The notes under the pieces were generated by a model. That model was not told the origin of the DNA. It did no database searches and saw only the letters and a list, made by a program, of their open reading frames with translations. The translations under genes were made by a program, and so were the position numbers. Of a stretch of DNA of 64,000 nt, positions 42,980 to 49,557 are shown piece after piece. Origin of the DNA: Escherichia coli (GTDB lineage Bacteria > Pseudomonadota > Gammaproteobacteria > Enterobacterales > Enterobacteriaceae); NCBI RefSeq assembly GCF_016903815.1, contig NZ_CP069973.1. One strand, 5' to 3'. Positions within the stretch are counted from its first letter, which is position 1. Each line of letters starts with the position of its first letter.

Positions 42980-44620
42980 ATGGCAATCCACAATCGTGCA
43001 GGCCAACCTGCACAACAGAGTGATTTGATTAACGTCGCCCAACTGACGGCGCAATATTATGTACTGAAACCAGAAGCAGGGAATGCGGAGCACGCGGTGA
43101 AATTCGGTACTTCTGGTCACCGTGGCAGTGCAGCGCGCCACAGCTTTAACGAGCCGCACATTCTGGCGATCGCTCAGGCAATTGCTGAAGAACGTGCGAA
43201 AAACGGCATCACTGGCCCTTGCTATGTGGGTAAAGATACTCACGCTCTGTCCGAGCCTGCGTTCATTTCCGTACTGGAAGTGCTGGCAGCGAACGGCGTA
43301 GATGTTATTGTGCAGGAAAACAATGGCTTCACTCCGACGCCTGCCGTTTCCAATGCCATCCTGGTTCACAATAAAAAAGGTGGCCCGCTGGCAGACGGTA
43401 TCGTGATTACACCGTCCCATAACCCGCCGGAAGATGGTGGTATCAAGTACAATCCGCCAAATGGTGGCCCGGCTGATACCAACGTCACCAAAGTGGTGGA
43501 AGACAGGGCCAACGCACTGATGGCCGATGGCCTGAAAGGCGTGAAGCGTATCTCCCTCGACGAAGCGATGGCATCCGGTCATGTGAAAGAGCAGGATCTG
43601 GTGCAGCCGTTCGTGGAAGGGCTGGCCGATATCGTTGATATGGCGGCGATTCAGAAAGCGGGCCTGACGCTGGGCGTTGATCCGTTGGGCGGTTCCGGTA
43701 TCGAATACTGGAAGCGCATTGGCGAGTATTACAACCTCAACCTGACCATCGTTAACGATCAGGTCGATCAAACCTTCCGCTTTATGCACCTCGATAAAGA
43801 CGGTGCGATCCGTATGGACTGCTCCTCCGAGTGTGCGATGGCGGGCCTGCTGGCACTGCGTGATAAGTTCGATCTGGCGTTTGCTAACGACCCGGATTAT
43901 GACCGTCACGGTATCGTCACTCCGGCAGGTTTGATGAATCCGAACCACTACCTGGCGGTGGCGATCAACTACCTGTTCCAGCATCGTCCGCAGTGGGGCA
44001 AAGATGTTGCTGTCGGTAAAACGCTGGTTTCATCTGCGATGATCGACCGTGTGGTCAATGACTTGGGCCGTAAGCTGGTAGAAGTCCCGGTAGGTTTCAA
44101 ATGGTTTGTTGATGGTCTGTTCGACGGCAGCTTCGGCTTTGGCGGCGAAGAGAGCGCAGGGGCTTCCTTCCTGCGTTTCGACGGCACGCCGTGGTCCACC
44201 GACAAAGACGGCATCATCATGTGTCTGCTGGCGGCGGAAATCACCGCTGTCACCGGTAAGAACCCGCAGGAACACTACAACGAACTGGCAAAACGCTTTG
44301 GTGCGCCGAGCTACAACCGTTTGCAGGCAGCTGCGACTTCCGCACAAAAAGCGGCGTTGTCTAAGCTGTCTCCGGAAATGGTGAGCGCCAGCACCCTGGC
44401 AGGTGACCCGATCACCGCGCGCCTGACTGCGGCACCGGGCAATGGTGCTTCTATCGGCGGTCTGAAAGTGATGACTGACAACGGCTGGTTCGCCGCGCGT
44501 CCGTCAGGCACGGAAGACGCGTACAAGATTTATTGCGAAAGCTTCCTCGGTGAAGAGCATCGCAAGCAGATCGAGAAAGAAGCGGTTGAGATTGTTAGCG
44601 AAGTTCTGAAAAACGCGTAA
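42980..44620 (+). CDS. pgm: Phosphoglucomutase Pgm (546 aa from [10 protein letters not shown])
   Basis: Phosphoserine-loop motif (TPSHNP); seqA–pgm operon arrangement. Confidence 0.92.
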
Positions 44621-44635
44621 ACACATTAAATAAGA

Positions 44636-44667
44636 AAAAGGGCGGTCGGAAGATCGCCCTTTTTTGC
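44636..44667. terminator. Bidirectional terminator between the convergent pgm and potE genes
   Basis: aaaaagggcg-gtcggaagatc-gccctttttt. Confidence 0.6.
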
Positions 44668-44676
44668 TTTTCTTAA

Positions 44677-45996
44677 TTAACCGTGTTTATTTTTCAGTTC
44701 AAAGCGTGGTGAGACCAGACCATACAGTGTCCAACCGAGGAAGGTCACGATGGAACCGTATAGCATGGCTTCTTCCCCGGATGAGTACAGCGCATAAAAG
44801 CTGTACATCGCGCCAACAAAAGCAACAAAGTTTGCAACTTTCGCTTTTGAGGGGGGCACATTAGCGACCTTCTGAATAATGACTAATGCCGCCATTGACA
44901 GAATATACGGAATGATATTGGTCACCACGGCCAGGTTAACCAGCACGTTGAACTGACTGTTTAGCGACGGGCTAATCGTCATCAGCGCCAACCCGCTCTG
45001 GATAATCACAATGGTCAACATTCCCTGCACCGGTGCATCCACTTTGGTTACACGGGAGAAAATTTTAGGGAAGTAGCCTTCATCAGATGAAGATTTAAAC
45101 ACCTGGGCAATGGTGAACTGCCAGCCAAGCAGCGAACCGCAGCAGGACATCACCATCAGCGCCATAATGACTTTACCCACTTCTGGCGTGAACATCTGTG
45201 CGAAGGCCAGGCCAAATGGTGCCGTTGAATTTGCCAGCTCCATATTAGGCACAATCCCTGCAATCACGTTGGTGGAGACGATATAAATCACCGCCGCACC
45301 TAACGTACCGCCGAGTACCGCGATTGGCACATTACGTTCCGGGTTTTCCACTACATCAGTATTCGCACACGCAGACTCCAGACCAAGAAAAGCCCACAGC
45401 GTCATAGCGATGGAAGAACCTACCGCACTGAAGAACGGTGCATGATGCGGATTCCAGGAATCAACGTAAAGCGTCGGGCTAAACCAGAACCAGCCGATAA
45501 CGCACAGGCCTACCACCGGAATAATGACCCCCCACACGGTAATGCTACTGATTTGCCCGGTAATGCGCGCACCACCAAAGTTAGCCACGGTACAAATCCA
45601 CAGCACCCCGATGGTCGCAAGACCAATCTGCACTGGCGACAAACTCGCGCCGAGCAGTTCGGTGCCGTAACCAACCGCCGAAATAGCAATCGCGACGTTA
45701 GCAATTAGCAGTGAGACGCCGTAGGTATAGTTCGCCATAAAGTTCCCGGATTTACCGAAAGCATACTCCGCATAACCGCCCATACCGCCTGATTTACGGC
45801 TGAACATACCGCATTTTGCGAATGCCCATGCCAGTGCCATTGAGCCTACGGCTGTCACCAGCCAGGAAATAATTGAGATTGTCCCGACTTCGGCAAGCTT
45901 TGTCGGCAGCATGATGATACCGGAGCCCATCATGTTGACCATCGTCAGTATGGTTAACTGAACGACGCCCATTTTGTTCGATTTAGCCTGACTCAT
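44677..45996 (-). CDS. potE: Putrescine–ornithine antiporter PotE (439 aa)
   Basis: APC-family permease; stop/start overlap with speF. Confidence 0.92.
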   Translation of the reverse strand: MSQAKSNKMGVVQLTILTMVNMMGSGIIMLPTKLAEVGTISIISWLVTAVGSMALAWAFAKCGMFSRKSGGMGGYAEYAFGKSGNFMANYTYGVSLLIANVAIAISAVGYGTELLGASLSPVQIGLATIGVLWICTVANFGGARITGQISSITVWGVIIPVVGLCVIGWFWFSPTLYVDSWNPHHAPFFSAVGSSIAMTLWAFLGLESACANTDVVENPERNVPIAVLGGTLGAAVIYIVSTNVIAGIVPNMELANSTAPFGLAFAQMFTPEVGKVIMALMVMSCCGSLLGWQFTIAQVFKSSSDEGYFPKIFSRVTKVDAPVQGMLTIVIIQSGLALMTISPSLNSQFNVLVNLAVVTNIIPYILSMAALVIIQKVANVPPSKAKVANFVAFVGAMYSFYALYSSGEEAMLYGSIVTFLGWTLYGLVSPRFELKNKHG

Positions 45997-48191
45997 AATT
46001 TTTCCCCTTTCAACAGGGTGCTTTGCGCATCACGAGGCTTGATGACATAGCACCAAACTTGCTTACGACCATCATGTTCTTCGATATAGACACCCTGCAG
46101 CTCCGGTGCAAAACCTGGCAGCAGGTTGATCCCTTCTTCCAGAGCGCTGAAGTAACGCAAAACAGCACCACCCCAGATTTCACCCGGAACAACACACAGC
46201 ACACCCGGAGGATAAGGAAGCGCACCTTCGGCAGCGATACGGCCTTCTGCATCCGGCAGACGAACCAGCTCCACTTCACCGCGTAAATAGGCGTAGTTAG
46301 CTTCTTGCGGATTCATGCTGACGCGTGGGAAGTGTTCCTTACGGAACATCTCTTTTTGCAGTTGTTTCACGTTGTGGCGGGCATACAAATCATGCATTTC
46401 CTGGCACAACTGACGAAGGGTATAACCGGCGTAGCGCTCTTCATGCTGTTTGTAGATGGAAGGTAGCACTTCCGCCAGCGGCGCATCAGATTCCAGCAGT
46501 TTTTCGAAGCGTACCAGCAGGGCAACAAGTTGCTGAAGTTTGGCCATATCCTCCGCCGGAGTCAGCAGGAAGAGGATGGAGTTAAGATCGCATTTTTCCG
46601 GCACTACGCCATTTTCGCGCAGGAAGTTAGCAAGAATCGTCGCGGGTACACCGAATGTTTCATATTCGCCGTTACGTGCATCAATACCTGGGGTTGTCAG
46701 CAACAGTTTGCAAGGATCGACAAAGTATTGATTCTCTGCATAGCCTTCAAAAGAATGCCAGTGTTCCCCTGGTACAAACTGGAAGAAGCGCAGATCAACC
46801 GCAATTTGCGCTGTTTCATACGACTGCCAGGGTTTACCATCCACCAGTTCAGGTACGAACGGACGAATATGCTGACAGTTATCGAGGATCAGTTTGCGGG
46901 CATTAATGCCATTTACCACACAATCCATCCACATATTACGACCGCTGACACCTTCATGCATTTTGGCGTTGATATCCAGTGCGGCAAACAGCGGATAGAA
47001 CGGGCTGGTGGAGGCGTGCATCATAAAGGCGTTGTTCATGCGTTTGTGCGGTACATAACGCTGTTGCCCTTTGATGTGGCTGTCTTTTTTATGGATTTGT
47101 GAAGTTTGAGAAAAACCAGCCTGCTGTTTATGTACGGATTGCGTAACCAGAATACCCGGATCGTTCTCATTAAGATCCAGCAACAGCGGCGAACAGTCAG
47201 CCATCATCGGGATAAATTGCTCATAGCCGACCCATGCGGAGTCAAACAGAATGTAGTCACACAGATGACCAATTTTATCCACCACCTGGCGGGCGTTATA
47301 AATCGTACCGTCGTAGGTGCCTAACTGAATCACAGCGAGGCGGAAAGGACGAGCCTCTTTTGCCCGCTGCGGTGCGACTTCCGCGATCAGCTCACGCAGG
47401 TAACTTTCTTCAAAACAATGCGCATCAATGCCACCGATAAAGCCATACGGGTTACGTGCCGTTTCCAGATAAACCGGTGTTGCACCAGCCTGTAGCAACG
47501 CTCCGTGGTGGTTAGATTTGTGGTTATTGCGATCAAACAGCACCAGATCACCCGGTGTTAGCAGGGCGTTTAAAACCACTTTGTTAGAAGATGAAGTGCC
47601 ATTTAGAACGAAGTATGTTTTATCGGCATTAAACACTTTTGCCGCATGTTGCTGTGCAATGCATGGCGCGCCTTCGTGAATCAGCAGATCGCCCATTGCC
47701 ACATCCGCGTTGCATAAGTCGGAACGGAACAGCGTTTCTCCGAAGTACTCCACGAACTGATTCCCTGCCGGATGACGACGGAAAAACTCACCTCCCTGAT
47801 GACCCGGGCAGTCAAAAGCGCTATTGCCCTGATTGACATAATCGACCAGTGCGCGGAAGAAGGGCGGGCGCAGTTGCGTTTCATAATGGCTAGCAGCGGT
47901 TTCTAACTGACGTCCATAAAACTCTTTCCGTGATTCGCAATGCTCGAAGACACCAGAAATACGTGGCAGATATTCTGCTGGTACACGTTCTTCATTTGCC
48001 GTTGCAATAAAAACAGGAATGCCATAGCCAGTAGCGTCTATTTCATCGAGTTTTCCACGTTCAACATCATTGACTGATAAAATAATGGCGGCAACGTCAA
48101 TATAATTACTTTCGTCAATATTCACGCATGCACGATGAGTGGAAAAACAATCCGGGCAAGAACGGCTAACGGCAATTTTTAATTCTGACAT
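45993..48191 (-). CDS. speF: Inducible ornithine decarboxylase SpeF (start MSELK at 48191 or MNKMSELK at 48200)
   Basis: Fold-III PLP decarboxylase; PLP-lysine region (SVHKQQAGFSQTSQIHKKD). Confidence 0.92.
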   Translation of the reverse strand: MSELKIAVSRSCPDCFSTHRACVNIDESNYIDVAAIILSVNDVERGKLDEIDATGYGIPVFIATANEERVPAEYLPRISGVFEHCESRKEFYGRQLETAASHYETQLRPPFFRALVDYVNQGNSAFDCPGHQGGEFFRRHPAGNQFVEYFGETLFRSDLCNADVAMGDLLIHEGAPCIAQQHAAKVFNADKTYFVLNGTSSSNKVVLNALLTPGDLVLFDRNNHKSNHHGALLQAGATPVYLETARNPYGFIGGIDAHCFEESYLRELIAEVAPQRAKEARPFRLAVIQLGTYDGTIYNARQVVDKIGHLCDYILFDSAWVGYEQFIPMMADCSPLLLDLNENDPGILVTQSVHKQQAGFSQTSQIHKKDSHIKGQQRYVPHKRMNNAFMMHASTSPFYPLFAALDINAKMHEGVSGRNMWMDCVVNGINARKLILDNCQHIRPFVPELVDGKPWQSYETAQIAVDLRFFQFVPGEHWHSFEGYAENQYFVDPCKLLLTTPGIDARNGEYETFGVPATILANFLRENGVVPEKCDLNSILFLLTPAEDMAKLQQLVALLVRFEKLLESDAPLAEVLPSIYKQHEERYAGYTLRQLCQEMHDLYARHNVKQLQKEMFRKEHFPRVSMNPQEANYAYLRGEVELVRLPDAEGRIAAEGALPYPPGVLCVVPGEIWGGAVLRYFSALEEGINLLPGFAPELQGVYIEEHDGRKQVWCYVIKPRDAQSTLLKGEKL

Positions 48192-48500
48192 TTTGTTCAT
48201 CTCTTTATTTCAGGTAATAGCAGGTCCTCAATTTCTCAAAGGAGAAATTGATCACGCCGGAAAAAAGCAAAACCCCACCGCTGATAAATAAATCAGTAGT
48301 TTGCTTTTTGTAGATGCAATAACCCAGACCAGCCCGGTAACTGGCTATACTCGTCATACCTCAAGTTGCAAGTGCTGCGACTCGAATTATTTAGAGTTTA
48401 AAAGGGTTAGCAGTATATGAGCACCGAGGAATACAGGTATTAACCTGTAATGCTTAAAGTCAGGGAGACCTGTACGTTGGGGTGCCCTTTAGTCAGAAGA

Positions 48501-48605
48501 CTAGCGGGCATTAAAGAAATGAAAGTCAAAACTATTACGATGGGCAAACTTCATGATATGGGTTGTCCGCCTTATATGAGGCATTAAGCGGTTATTATTT
48601 TCCAT
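48501..48605 (-). CDS. speFL: speF leader arrest peptide SpeFL (34 aa; MENNNRLMPHIRRTTHIMKFAHRNSFDFHFFNAR)
   Basis: Manual minus-strand translation; matches the ornithine-sensing leader peptide as recalled; sits about 300 nt upstream of speF. Confidence 0.75.
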   Translation of the reverse strand: MENNNRLMPHIRRTTHIMKFAHRNSFDFHFFNAR

Positions 48606-48879
48606 TTACCTTTACCTCTTGCTGTGTCAGTTGAAGGTAGAGTTATTCTATCCATGAAATGGCTATAATCTGTGAAGAAGATCAACAAAAAACGATCATA
48701 CCCCAGATAATAAATCATTAATTATGAATATTGCCATATTAGATGCTGTTTTGTTACTTAAATGTTGTAATTTTGTGTTTTATATTTGCGTTAAGAAATT
48801 AAACCTGCCAAATAATAATATTTGGAGCAGGTTTAATAATAAATTAATCACTATTAAAGCGAATTTATTGAATAACAAT

Positions 48880-49557
48880 TCAAAGCATAAACCGATACCC
48901 AATACCGGTTTCAGTAATGAAATGGCGGGGGCGAGCGGGATCCTGTTCCAGTTTTTGTCGCAGATGTCCCATATAAATACGCAAATAATGACTGTGTTCG
49001 ACCGCGTTTGGCCCCCACACCTGGTTAAGGAGCTGGCGCTGGGTGAGCACTTTTCCGGCATTGTTGAGCAGCACCGCCAGCAGGCGAAACTCAATTGGTG
49101 TGAGATGCACCTCTTCCTCACCGCGATGGATCACGCGGGCGGCTAAATCGACGGTAACATCGGAAAATTTCACCAGCGGATCGGGCGCAGCGGTGGCGGA
49201 GTGGCGACGTAAAGCGACGCGCAGACGGGCCTGCAATTCGCCAATGCCAAACGGCTTACTCAGGTAATCATCCGCTCCGGCATCCAGCGCGGCGATTTTG
49301 TCGCTCTCTTCGCTGCGTGCGGAAAGCACAATCACTGGCACTGCGCTCCACTGGCGCAGGTCGCGGATAAACTCAATCCCATCACCATCGGGCAGGCCGA
49401 GATCGAGAATAATCAAATCTGGCTTACGGGTAGCCGCTTCCAGCAAGCCGCGTTGCAGCGTTTCGGCCTCATAGACGCGCATCCCGTCGCCCTCCAGCGC
49501 CGTGCGCAGAAAGCGACGAATAGCCTGTTCATCTTCAACAATCAGAACGTTTGTCAC
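48880..49557 (-). CDS. kdpE: Response regulator KdpE (OmpR family, 225 aa)
   Basis: Receiver domain (Asp in LIILDLGLPDGDG) plus winged-helix output domain. Confidence 0.93.
   Translation of the reverse strand: MTNVLIVEDEQAIRRFLRTALEGDGMRVYEAETLQRGLLEAATRKPDLIILDLGLPDGDGIEFIRDLRQWSAVPVIVLSARSEESDKIAALDAGADDYLSKPFGIGELQARLRVALRRHSATAAPDPLVKFSDVTVDLAARVIHRGEEEVHLTPIEFRLLAVLLNNAGKVLTQRQLLNQVWGPNAVEHSHYLRIYMGHLRQKLEQDPARPRHFITETGIGYRFML

Follow-up and report, generated by a model that had tools for sequence, protein, structure and literature searches.

Sequence integrity of the SpeFL leader peptide gene and its attenuator upstream of speF–potE in an Escherichia coli strain

The speFL reading frame, its operon, and its putative promoter

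The window, a stretch of 64,000 nucleotides of E. coli DNA, carries the gene order kdpE–speFL–speF–potE, with kdpE and kdpD lying upstream of speFL. The genes concerned are the following:

48501–48605, minus strand: speFL coding sequence, 34 codons plus TAG, encoding MENNNRLMPHIRRTTHIMKFAHRNSFDFHFFNAR (RefSeq; Pfam PF10940; PDB 6TBV/6TC3)
45993–48191, minus strand: speF, inducible ornithine decarboxylase, 732 aa, intact (TIGR04301, RefSeq)
44677–45996, minus strand: potE, putrescine–ornithine antiporter, 439 aa, intact

SpeF matches TIGR04301 over its full length (1436 bits, cut-off 1310), and PotE is recognized by NF007938 (856 bits) and TIGR04299 (850 bits). In the list of open reading frames, speF is given 735 aa, with its start set at 48200, 9 nt before the ATG at 48191; the latter start is favoured by RefSeq and by the alignment with K-12.

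An earlier note on this DNA had described a minus-strand ORF of 34 codons about 300 nt from speF. Translation of 48501–48605 gives exactly MENNNRLMPHIRRTTHIMKFAHRNSFDFHFFNAR followed by TAG, and the spacer between the speFL stop codon, which ends at 48501, and the speF ATG at 48191 measures 309 nt, in agreement with that description. By itself, an open frame of 34 codons is at chance level: the list for 9 kb contains this 34-aa ATG ORF among 132 ORFs of at least 20 aa. Because the open frame alone is uninformative, the evidence must rest on identity and conservation. The earlier note put the absence of this ORF from its ORF track down to a length below 60 aa, a plausible reason, since 60 aa is the default cut-off of the ORF lister.

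The identity of the peptide is supported by several resources. RefSeq places “speFL, leader peptide SpeFL” (WP_001312672.1) on the identical ORF, and the exact peptide is present in at least 1000 contigs of the public databases, where it is named “leader peptide SpeFL”. The Pfam family PF10940 SpeFL (formerly DUF2618) matches with 27.9 bits (cut-off 25, E = 2.1e-6), and a PDB search finds the SpeFL chain of 6TBV/6TC3, with 32/34 identities along the full peptide and E = 1.7e-18. Several complete E. coli genomes match a 751-nt query over the region at 100% identity. A search of the peptide against NCBIfam returned no family at E ≤ 0.01, possibly since so short a peptide has no scoring model; PGAP names speFL without an NCBIfam match, and the name is evidently given by another route. 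The RefSeq, Pfam, and PDB matches thus back the identification, made in the earlier note, of this ORF as the arrest sensor SpeFL of speF–potE. The gene is already described and annotated, and nothing about it is new in itself.

Two elements upstream of the ORF could direct its expression:

48609–48618, minus strand: Shine–Dalgarno region of speFL, with GAGG at −13 to −10 and AGG at −6 to −4 from the AUG
48634–48699, minus strand: inferred promoter of the speF operon, with a −10-like TAGAAT at 48645–48650 and a transcription start at about 48634–48636

An A/G-rich AAGG element before the speFL ATG is conserved in other genera. The promoter is placed by homology to the Salmonella transcription start, mapped 31 nt upstream of the AUG (PMC6386406), and by cross-genus conservation; a −10 element of the form TAGAAT or TAAAAT is conserved across genera at the position of this mapped start. 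A simple scan for the sigma-70 consensus called no promoter on the minus strand. Further upstream, at about 48665–48699 (minus strand), the motif TGATC-N8-TTGATC-N3-TTCACAG is conserved in Escherichia, Salmonella, Citrobacter, and Kosakonia amid diverged surroundings, which makes it a candidate site for an acid or anaerobic regulator of speF. RefSeq also annotates a 44-aa “hypothetical protein” (WP_001299172.1; 48584–48718, minus strand) that spans the promoter and overlaps the start of speFL by 22 nt. Stop codons interrupt this frame in both K-12 and E. coli E69, and Pfam gave no match; the gene call is therefore probably spurious.

The far side of the operon differs from K-12 in its arrangement. 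In the window, the stop codons of pgm and potE lie 56 nt apart, and the ybfP / ybfG' / ybfI' segment of K-12 is absent (44620–44677). In K-12, the ybfI pseudogene reproduces 145 nt from the 3' end of kdpE at 89.7% identity (window positions 48879–49023; K-12 locus L002, 3413–4871), so that speFL–speF–potE of K-12 is flanked by two kdpE 3' ends. The arrangement resembles the trace of an ancient rearrangement or insertion.

Arrest residues and conservation of the peptide

Published work on the K-12 peptide and its ribosome complex (6TBV/6TC3; Herrero del Valle et al, 10.1101/604074, later Nat Microbiol 2020) defines which residues matter for arrest. The recognition motif falls within the ORF as follows:

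48558–48578, minus strand: ornithine-recognition loop HIRRTTH, codons 10–16 (HIRRXXH, motif defined in 10.1101/604074)

Nine residues are needed for ornithine-dependent arrest, namely H10, I11, R12, R13, H16, F26, F28, F30, and F31, and point mutations of these residues in the K-12 peptide abolish or impair ornithine-dependent stalling (10.1101/604074). The ligand pocket is lined by P9, R12, and R13, while F26 nucleates a hydrophobic core with F20, F28, F30, and F31, and N32 adjoins the peptidyl-transferase centre (10.1101/604074). Removal of residues 1–7, which form an N-terminal hairpin, abolishes stalling, and a double-frameshifted K-12 template loses its ornithine dependence (10.1101/604074).

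The window peptide has all nine required residues (9/9), together with P9, F20, and N32, and its effector-domain residues are identical to those of the 6TBV chain. The HIRRxxH core to which the earlier note had pointed is intact, as HIRRTTH at residues 10–16, and the end-to-end alignment with published SpeFL (32/34) leaves both the arrest residues and the frame unbroken. Only S5N and T7L distinguish the window peptide from the tested K-12 peptide, and residues 1–7 are all present. The stop codon TAG follows directly after R34. Ornithine-dependent, puromycin-resistant stalling has been demonstrated for the K-12 peptide only (10.1101/604074); given its near-identity to that peptide, the window peptide would be expected to stall in the same way.

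The conservation of the peptide was assessed by searching a single genome of each bacterial species for a DNA pattern restricted to the codons of the essential residues. This gave 77 matches, 67 of which are 34-codon ORFs starting with MENN, all in Enterobacterales; the other 10 are chance matches in unrelated phyla, ORFs cut at a contig end, or frames without an upstream ATG. At every locus with enough downstream sequence, a speF homologue lies 197–382 nt downstream. The stop codon is TAG in 46 of the 67 loci and TAA in 21. Since the pattern itself demanded H10, I11, R12, R13, and H16, their presence is not independent evidence of conservation. Among the positions that the pattern did not specify, T14 and T15 are T in 28 of the 29 distinct peptide variants, and M8, M18, R23, and N32 are invariant or nearly so across the loci. 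Position 7 is the most variable of the peptide, with ten different residues across species, and position 5 is either N or S, with N the commoner. S5N and T7L thus fall where the family tolerates change. K19 was found in Escherichia only.

Within E. coli, the peptide is encoded by two alleles, of the window type and of the K-12 type, which differ at 15 of the 105 nt of the ORF (about 86% identity). Of these differences, eleven are single changes that leave the amino acid unaltered, and the remaining four give rise to S5N and T7L only. The ratio of 11 synonymous to 2 amino-acid changes indicates purifying selection on the translated peptide.

Some E. coli peptides vary in or near the sensor loop: HIRRKTH is found in at least 1000 contigs, MENNNRKMPHIRRVTH in 593, and S25I in 469. 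A K-12-type speFL leader with 100% identity is also present on a 2.2-kb contig labelled as a Collinsella sp. MAG (JAIJJM010000551.1; L048), which is almost certainly mis-binned E. coli sequence.

RNA features of the leader and the proposed mechanism

The leader RNA carries the elements of the attenuators described in K-12 and Salmonella, listed here in the direction of transcription:

48567–48572, minus strand: rare arginine codons, R12 = AGG and R13 = CGG, the same in the K-12 allele
48512–48534, minus strand: 5' strand of a long-range helix, speFL codons ~24–32 (predicted fold)
48483–48510, minus strand: stop-codon (pause) hairpin, formed by codons 32–34, UAG, and 18 nt downstream
48475–48486, minus strand: pause element G−11 G−10 ... 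Y−1 G+1 (G48486, G48485, C48476, G48475)
48420–48454, minus strand: hairpin 3' of the stop-codon hairpin, equivalent to the Salmonella “DS” hairpin
48229–48250, minus strand: conserved hairpin just 5' of the speF ribosome-binding site (RBS), CAAUUUCUC-CUUU-GAGAAAUUG
48181–48213, minus strand: 3' strand of the long-range helix, over the speF Shine–Dalgarno sequence (AAAGAG) and start codon (predicted)

The rare codons are widely kept. At codon 12, 54 of the 67 loci have AGG; at codon 13, 56 have CGG or CGA; and the pair AGG-CGG is unchanged between the two E. coli alleles despite the 11 synonymous changes elsewhere in the ORF. The stop-codon hairpin is stable (−15.8 kcal/mol, z = −3.7) and has a counterpart in K-12. 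The pause element beside it follows the consensus given in the legend of Supplementary Fig. [quoted passage not shown] For the DS-like hairpin, a 51-nt segment gives −14.4 kcal/mol (z = −2.5).

The whole leader, from the inferred transcription start to speF codon 10, has a minimum free energy (MFE) of −135.3 kcal/mol (z = −4.5), with none of 100 shuffled sequences as good. The predicted fold reproduces the architecture of the Salmonella leader, in which a long-range helix encloses a ring of hairpins. This helix is predicted in the MFE and centroid folds of both E. coli alleles (z = −4.3 for the K-12 leader), and compensatory mutations have confirmed it in Salmonella only (PMC6386406).

Covariation was scored by counting pairs on the window-sequence structure in 51 Enterobacteriaceae-like leaders. 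The outer pair of the stop-codon hairpin, 39–66, covaries (UA 20 / CG 20 / UG 9), and in the hairpin adjacent to the RBS the counts are AU 40 / GC 6 / GU 4 for pair 98–117, UA 35 / CG 8 / UG 5 for pair 104–111, and CG 26 / UA 15 / UG 4 for pair 105–110. Most species keep canonical pairing in the long-range helix, but its core hardly varies in sequence, and covariation therefore gives no evidence for or against this helix. RNAalifold gave no consensus structure for all 62 distinct leaders, because those of Serratia, Cedecea, and Ewingella are too divergent.

From transcript position ~41 (mid-ORF) onward, each 40 nt contain 1 to 7 more C than G, a non-diagnostic excess that is much the same in K-12 and marks a candidate rut region. 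A search of the leader against Rfam in E-value mode returned sub-threshold chance matches alone. The isrH sRNA was considered among these and rejected: it scored 17.3 bits against a gathering score of 45, and since its match lies on the ERIC-derived insert described below, it is credited to the repeat and not to an sRNA.

We consider it highly probable (roughly 0.93) that speFL is the leader ORF of speF–potE in this strain and that the published ornithine-sensing mechanism applies to it, by virtue of the near-identity of the components to those tested. Under this reading, transcription would begin about 30 nt upstream of the ORF, and RNA polymerase would pause at the hairpin that holds the speFL stop codon while the translating ribosome slows at the rare AGG-CGG codons. 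Ornithine in a pocket of the 23S rRNA tunnel wall would be captured by the nascent HIRRTTH loop together with P9, R12, and R13, and the Phe-rich C-terminal domain (F20, F26, F28, F30, F31, and N32) would then compact and block RF1 at UAG, leaving the ribosome stalled with R34 in the P site. The stalled and queued ribosomes would cover the Rho-loading region and allow read-through into speF–potE; they would also keep speFL codons ~24–32 off the speF Shine–Dalgarno sequence, so that speF can be translated. Without ornithine, the ribosome would terminate, Rho would load, and transcription would end ~20–25 nt past the stop codon.

In this scheme, stalling, ornithine binding, and Rho dependence are carried over from experiments in K-12 and Salmonella. 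The published SpeFL assays used K-12/DH5alpha sequence or Salmonella throughout (10.1101/604074, PMC6386406), and bicyclomycin-sensitive premature termination was demonstrated in both K-12 (10.1101/604074) and Salmonella (PMC6386406).

Three known systems resemble the window leader to differing degrees. K-12 SpeFL (b4803) lies at the matching chromosomal position, in the order kdpE–speFL–speF–potE, and shares with the window the 34 codons, the UAG stop codon, AGG-CGG at codons 12–13, the pause motif, the hairpin at the stop codon, and the predicted fold of the leader; the peptides differ by S5 and T7 in K-12 versus N5 and L7 in the window, all within the N-terminal hairpin. The Salmonella Typhimurium orf34 (Ben-Zvi et al, 2019; PMC6386406) is an orthologous 34-codon leader ORF with AGG-CGG, whose translation-dependent escape from Rho termination, shortly past a hairpin at the stop codon, has been described; this hairpin, the DS hairpin, the “ring”, and the ORF–RBS helix are all predicted in the window too, and its transcript terminates ~21 nt past the orf34 stop codon (PMC6386406). 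Unlike the window, the sampled Salmonella subspecies have F7 and M19 in the peptide and a spacer of ~380 nt (309 nt in the window), with extra sequence that has no recognizable ERIC core. An additional layer that involves arginine and RNase G has been shown in Salmonella only (PMC6386406).

TnaC of the tnaCAB operon, which responds to tryptophan, resembles SpeFL in its logic: the peptide and a free amino acid jointly keep the release factor from acting at the stop codon, and Rho termination is prevented because rut is masked by the stalled ribosome (10.1101/604074). However, it has an unrelated sequence, another ligand and site, RF2/UGA instead of RF1/UAG, and a different operon. TnaC is an analogue of SpeFL, not a member of its family.

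Two leader alleles in E. coli and alternative readings

The window and K-12 (L002, 8000–9060) are only 57–87% identical per 200 columns across 47,600–48,880, compared with 95–100% in the flanks. This divergent patch of ~1.3 kb takes in the promoter, speFL, the spacer, and 600 nt at the 5' end of speF; ahead of the promoter core, identity falls to 47–61% per 200 columns. The spacer measures 309 nt in the window and 257 nt in K-12, the difference being due to a short repeat derived from an ERIC element:

48348–48394, minus strand: short ERIC-derived repeat with both termini joined and no core, a 51-nt insertion relative to K-12

The left terminus of the insert matches ERIC at 19/20 positions and the right terminus at 22/25. 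The ERIC core (ERIC1R/ERIC2 primer sites, ~75 nt), searched with up to 6 mismatches, is absent at the insert, and no convincing copy was found in the 64-kb window; we therefore refer to the insert as an ERIC-derived short form and not as a full ERIC. It shares with ERIC elements both termini, a transcribed intergenic location, and a hairpin, and it is predicted to fold as its own stem-loop within the leader ring. Shortened ERIC copies have reportedly been catalogued in E. coli by Wilson and Sharp in 2006. A literature search that linked ERIC with speF found nothing relevant. Another short-form copy in E. coli lies between yafP and the rtcB/prfH pseudogenes.

Both leader types are common. Among 5,426 complete E. 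coli genomes, the site is filled in 3,326 (~61%) and empty, as in K-12, in 1,701. The window-type leader is closest to those of E. albertii and of a divergent “E. coli” species representative (86–91%), whereas the sampled species offer nothing close to the K-12-type spacer, for which Citrobacter is the best match at ~84%.

Insertions in the leader extend beyond E. coli. A blastn-short search for the insert in other species gave no match, but looser blastn settings, a look through the spacers, and approximate matching to the ERIC primers revealed copies. A short, core-less insert occupies the same site in E. albertii and in E. coli E69, diverged in both. Kluyvera ascorbata (L075) carries a full-length ERIC at the leader site of the window insert, and Citrobacter, Kluyvera, and Pluralibacter carry full-length ERICs at a second leader site, in the region of the downstream hairpin. 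The leader loci with ERIC inserts are L075, L047, L064, L008, L080, and L034; the core is present in the full-length copies of L075, L064, L080, and L008, and L075, L064, and L008 contain both standard ERIC-PCR primer sites, back to back. As judged from these sequences, the speF leader has repeatedly acquired ERIC elements.

These differences raise the possibility that the window allele is a functionally distinct variant, in which the ERIC hairpin, the divergent promoter-proximal sequence, and S5N/T7L give a different set-point from that of K-12, whether in ornithine sensitivity, mRNA stability, or basal level. Such a variant would fit a divergence that is limited to the regulatory patch and the 5' end of speF, and two alleles that are both common (3,326 versus 1,701 genomes). 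Deletions in the “ring” of the Salmonella leader alter mRNA stability (PMC6386406), and the ERIC insert sits in the equivalent predicted part; the loss of stalling upon deletion of residues 1–7 in K-12 implies that the N-terminus matters somehow (10.1101/604074). On the other hand, the insert is a self-contained predicted stem-loop in a leader whose overall architecture is that of K-12, leaders with 0, ~50, or ~125 extra nt at the same or a nearby site across genera suggest tolerance, and positions 5 and 7 are the most variable of the peptide. We regard a distinct set-point as possible but rather unlikely.

Given the autonomous predicted fold of the insert and the tolerance to insertion in other genera, the difference between the alleles is probably neutral, even if the 51 nt and the two N-terminal substitutions could alter quantitative behaviour. 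E. coli carries two long-diverged versions of the leader, and the more specific suggestion that the common one sets another ornithine threshold or mRNA stability than K-12 is a speculative one that we think improbable. With its sharp bounds, the 1.3-kb patch could stem from horizontal replacement or from selection acting on this regulatory region.

A second alternative concerns the role of the peptide. If speFL served as a translated spacer only, control would lie in the speed of the ribosome at the two arginine codons, and hence in arginine, and not in the sensing of ornithine. In Salmonella, translation of orf34 as such blocks Rho termination and unfolds an inhibitory helix, and the two arginine codons mediate a response to arginine via mRNA stability (PMC6386406); the window keeps the arginine codons, the hairpins, and the predicted helix that this explanation needs. 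However, the strong purifying selection on the peptide reaches well beyond the arginine codons, as the 11 synonymous versus 2 amino-acid changes and the near-invariance of M8, M18, R23, and N32 attest, and in K-12 both the double frameshift and the point mutants lose ornithine-dependent stalling (10.1101/604074). We judge a pure spacer role very unlikely; the response to arginine is a layer on top of ornithine sensing, not a substitute for it.

That speFL is a chance frame in a non-coding leader with a coincidental likeness to SpeFL has a negligible probability: short frames are abundant here, with 132 ORFs of 20 aa or more in 9 kb, but the match to PDB SpeFL at E = 1.7e-18, the synonymous bias of the allele substitutions, the conservation of the 34-codon frame in 67 loci, and the curated annotation already refute it.

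The reading of speFL as the ornithine-sensing leader ORF of speF–potE thus concerns a gene that was described in 2019–2020, whose ribosome complex has been solved, and which RefSeq annotates at the exact position. For the strain examined here, the sequence confirms that sensor and attenuator are intact. It also places the leader of laboratory K-12 as the minority allele in E. coli, which matters when SpeFL regulation as established in K-12 is carried over to pathogenic or commensal isolates: most of them have the 51-nt repeat-derived hairpin and the two peptide substitutions.
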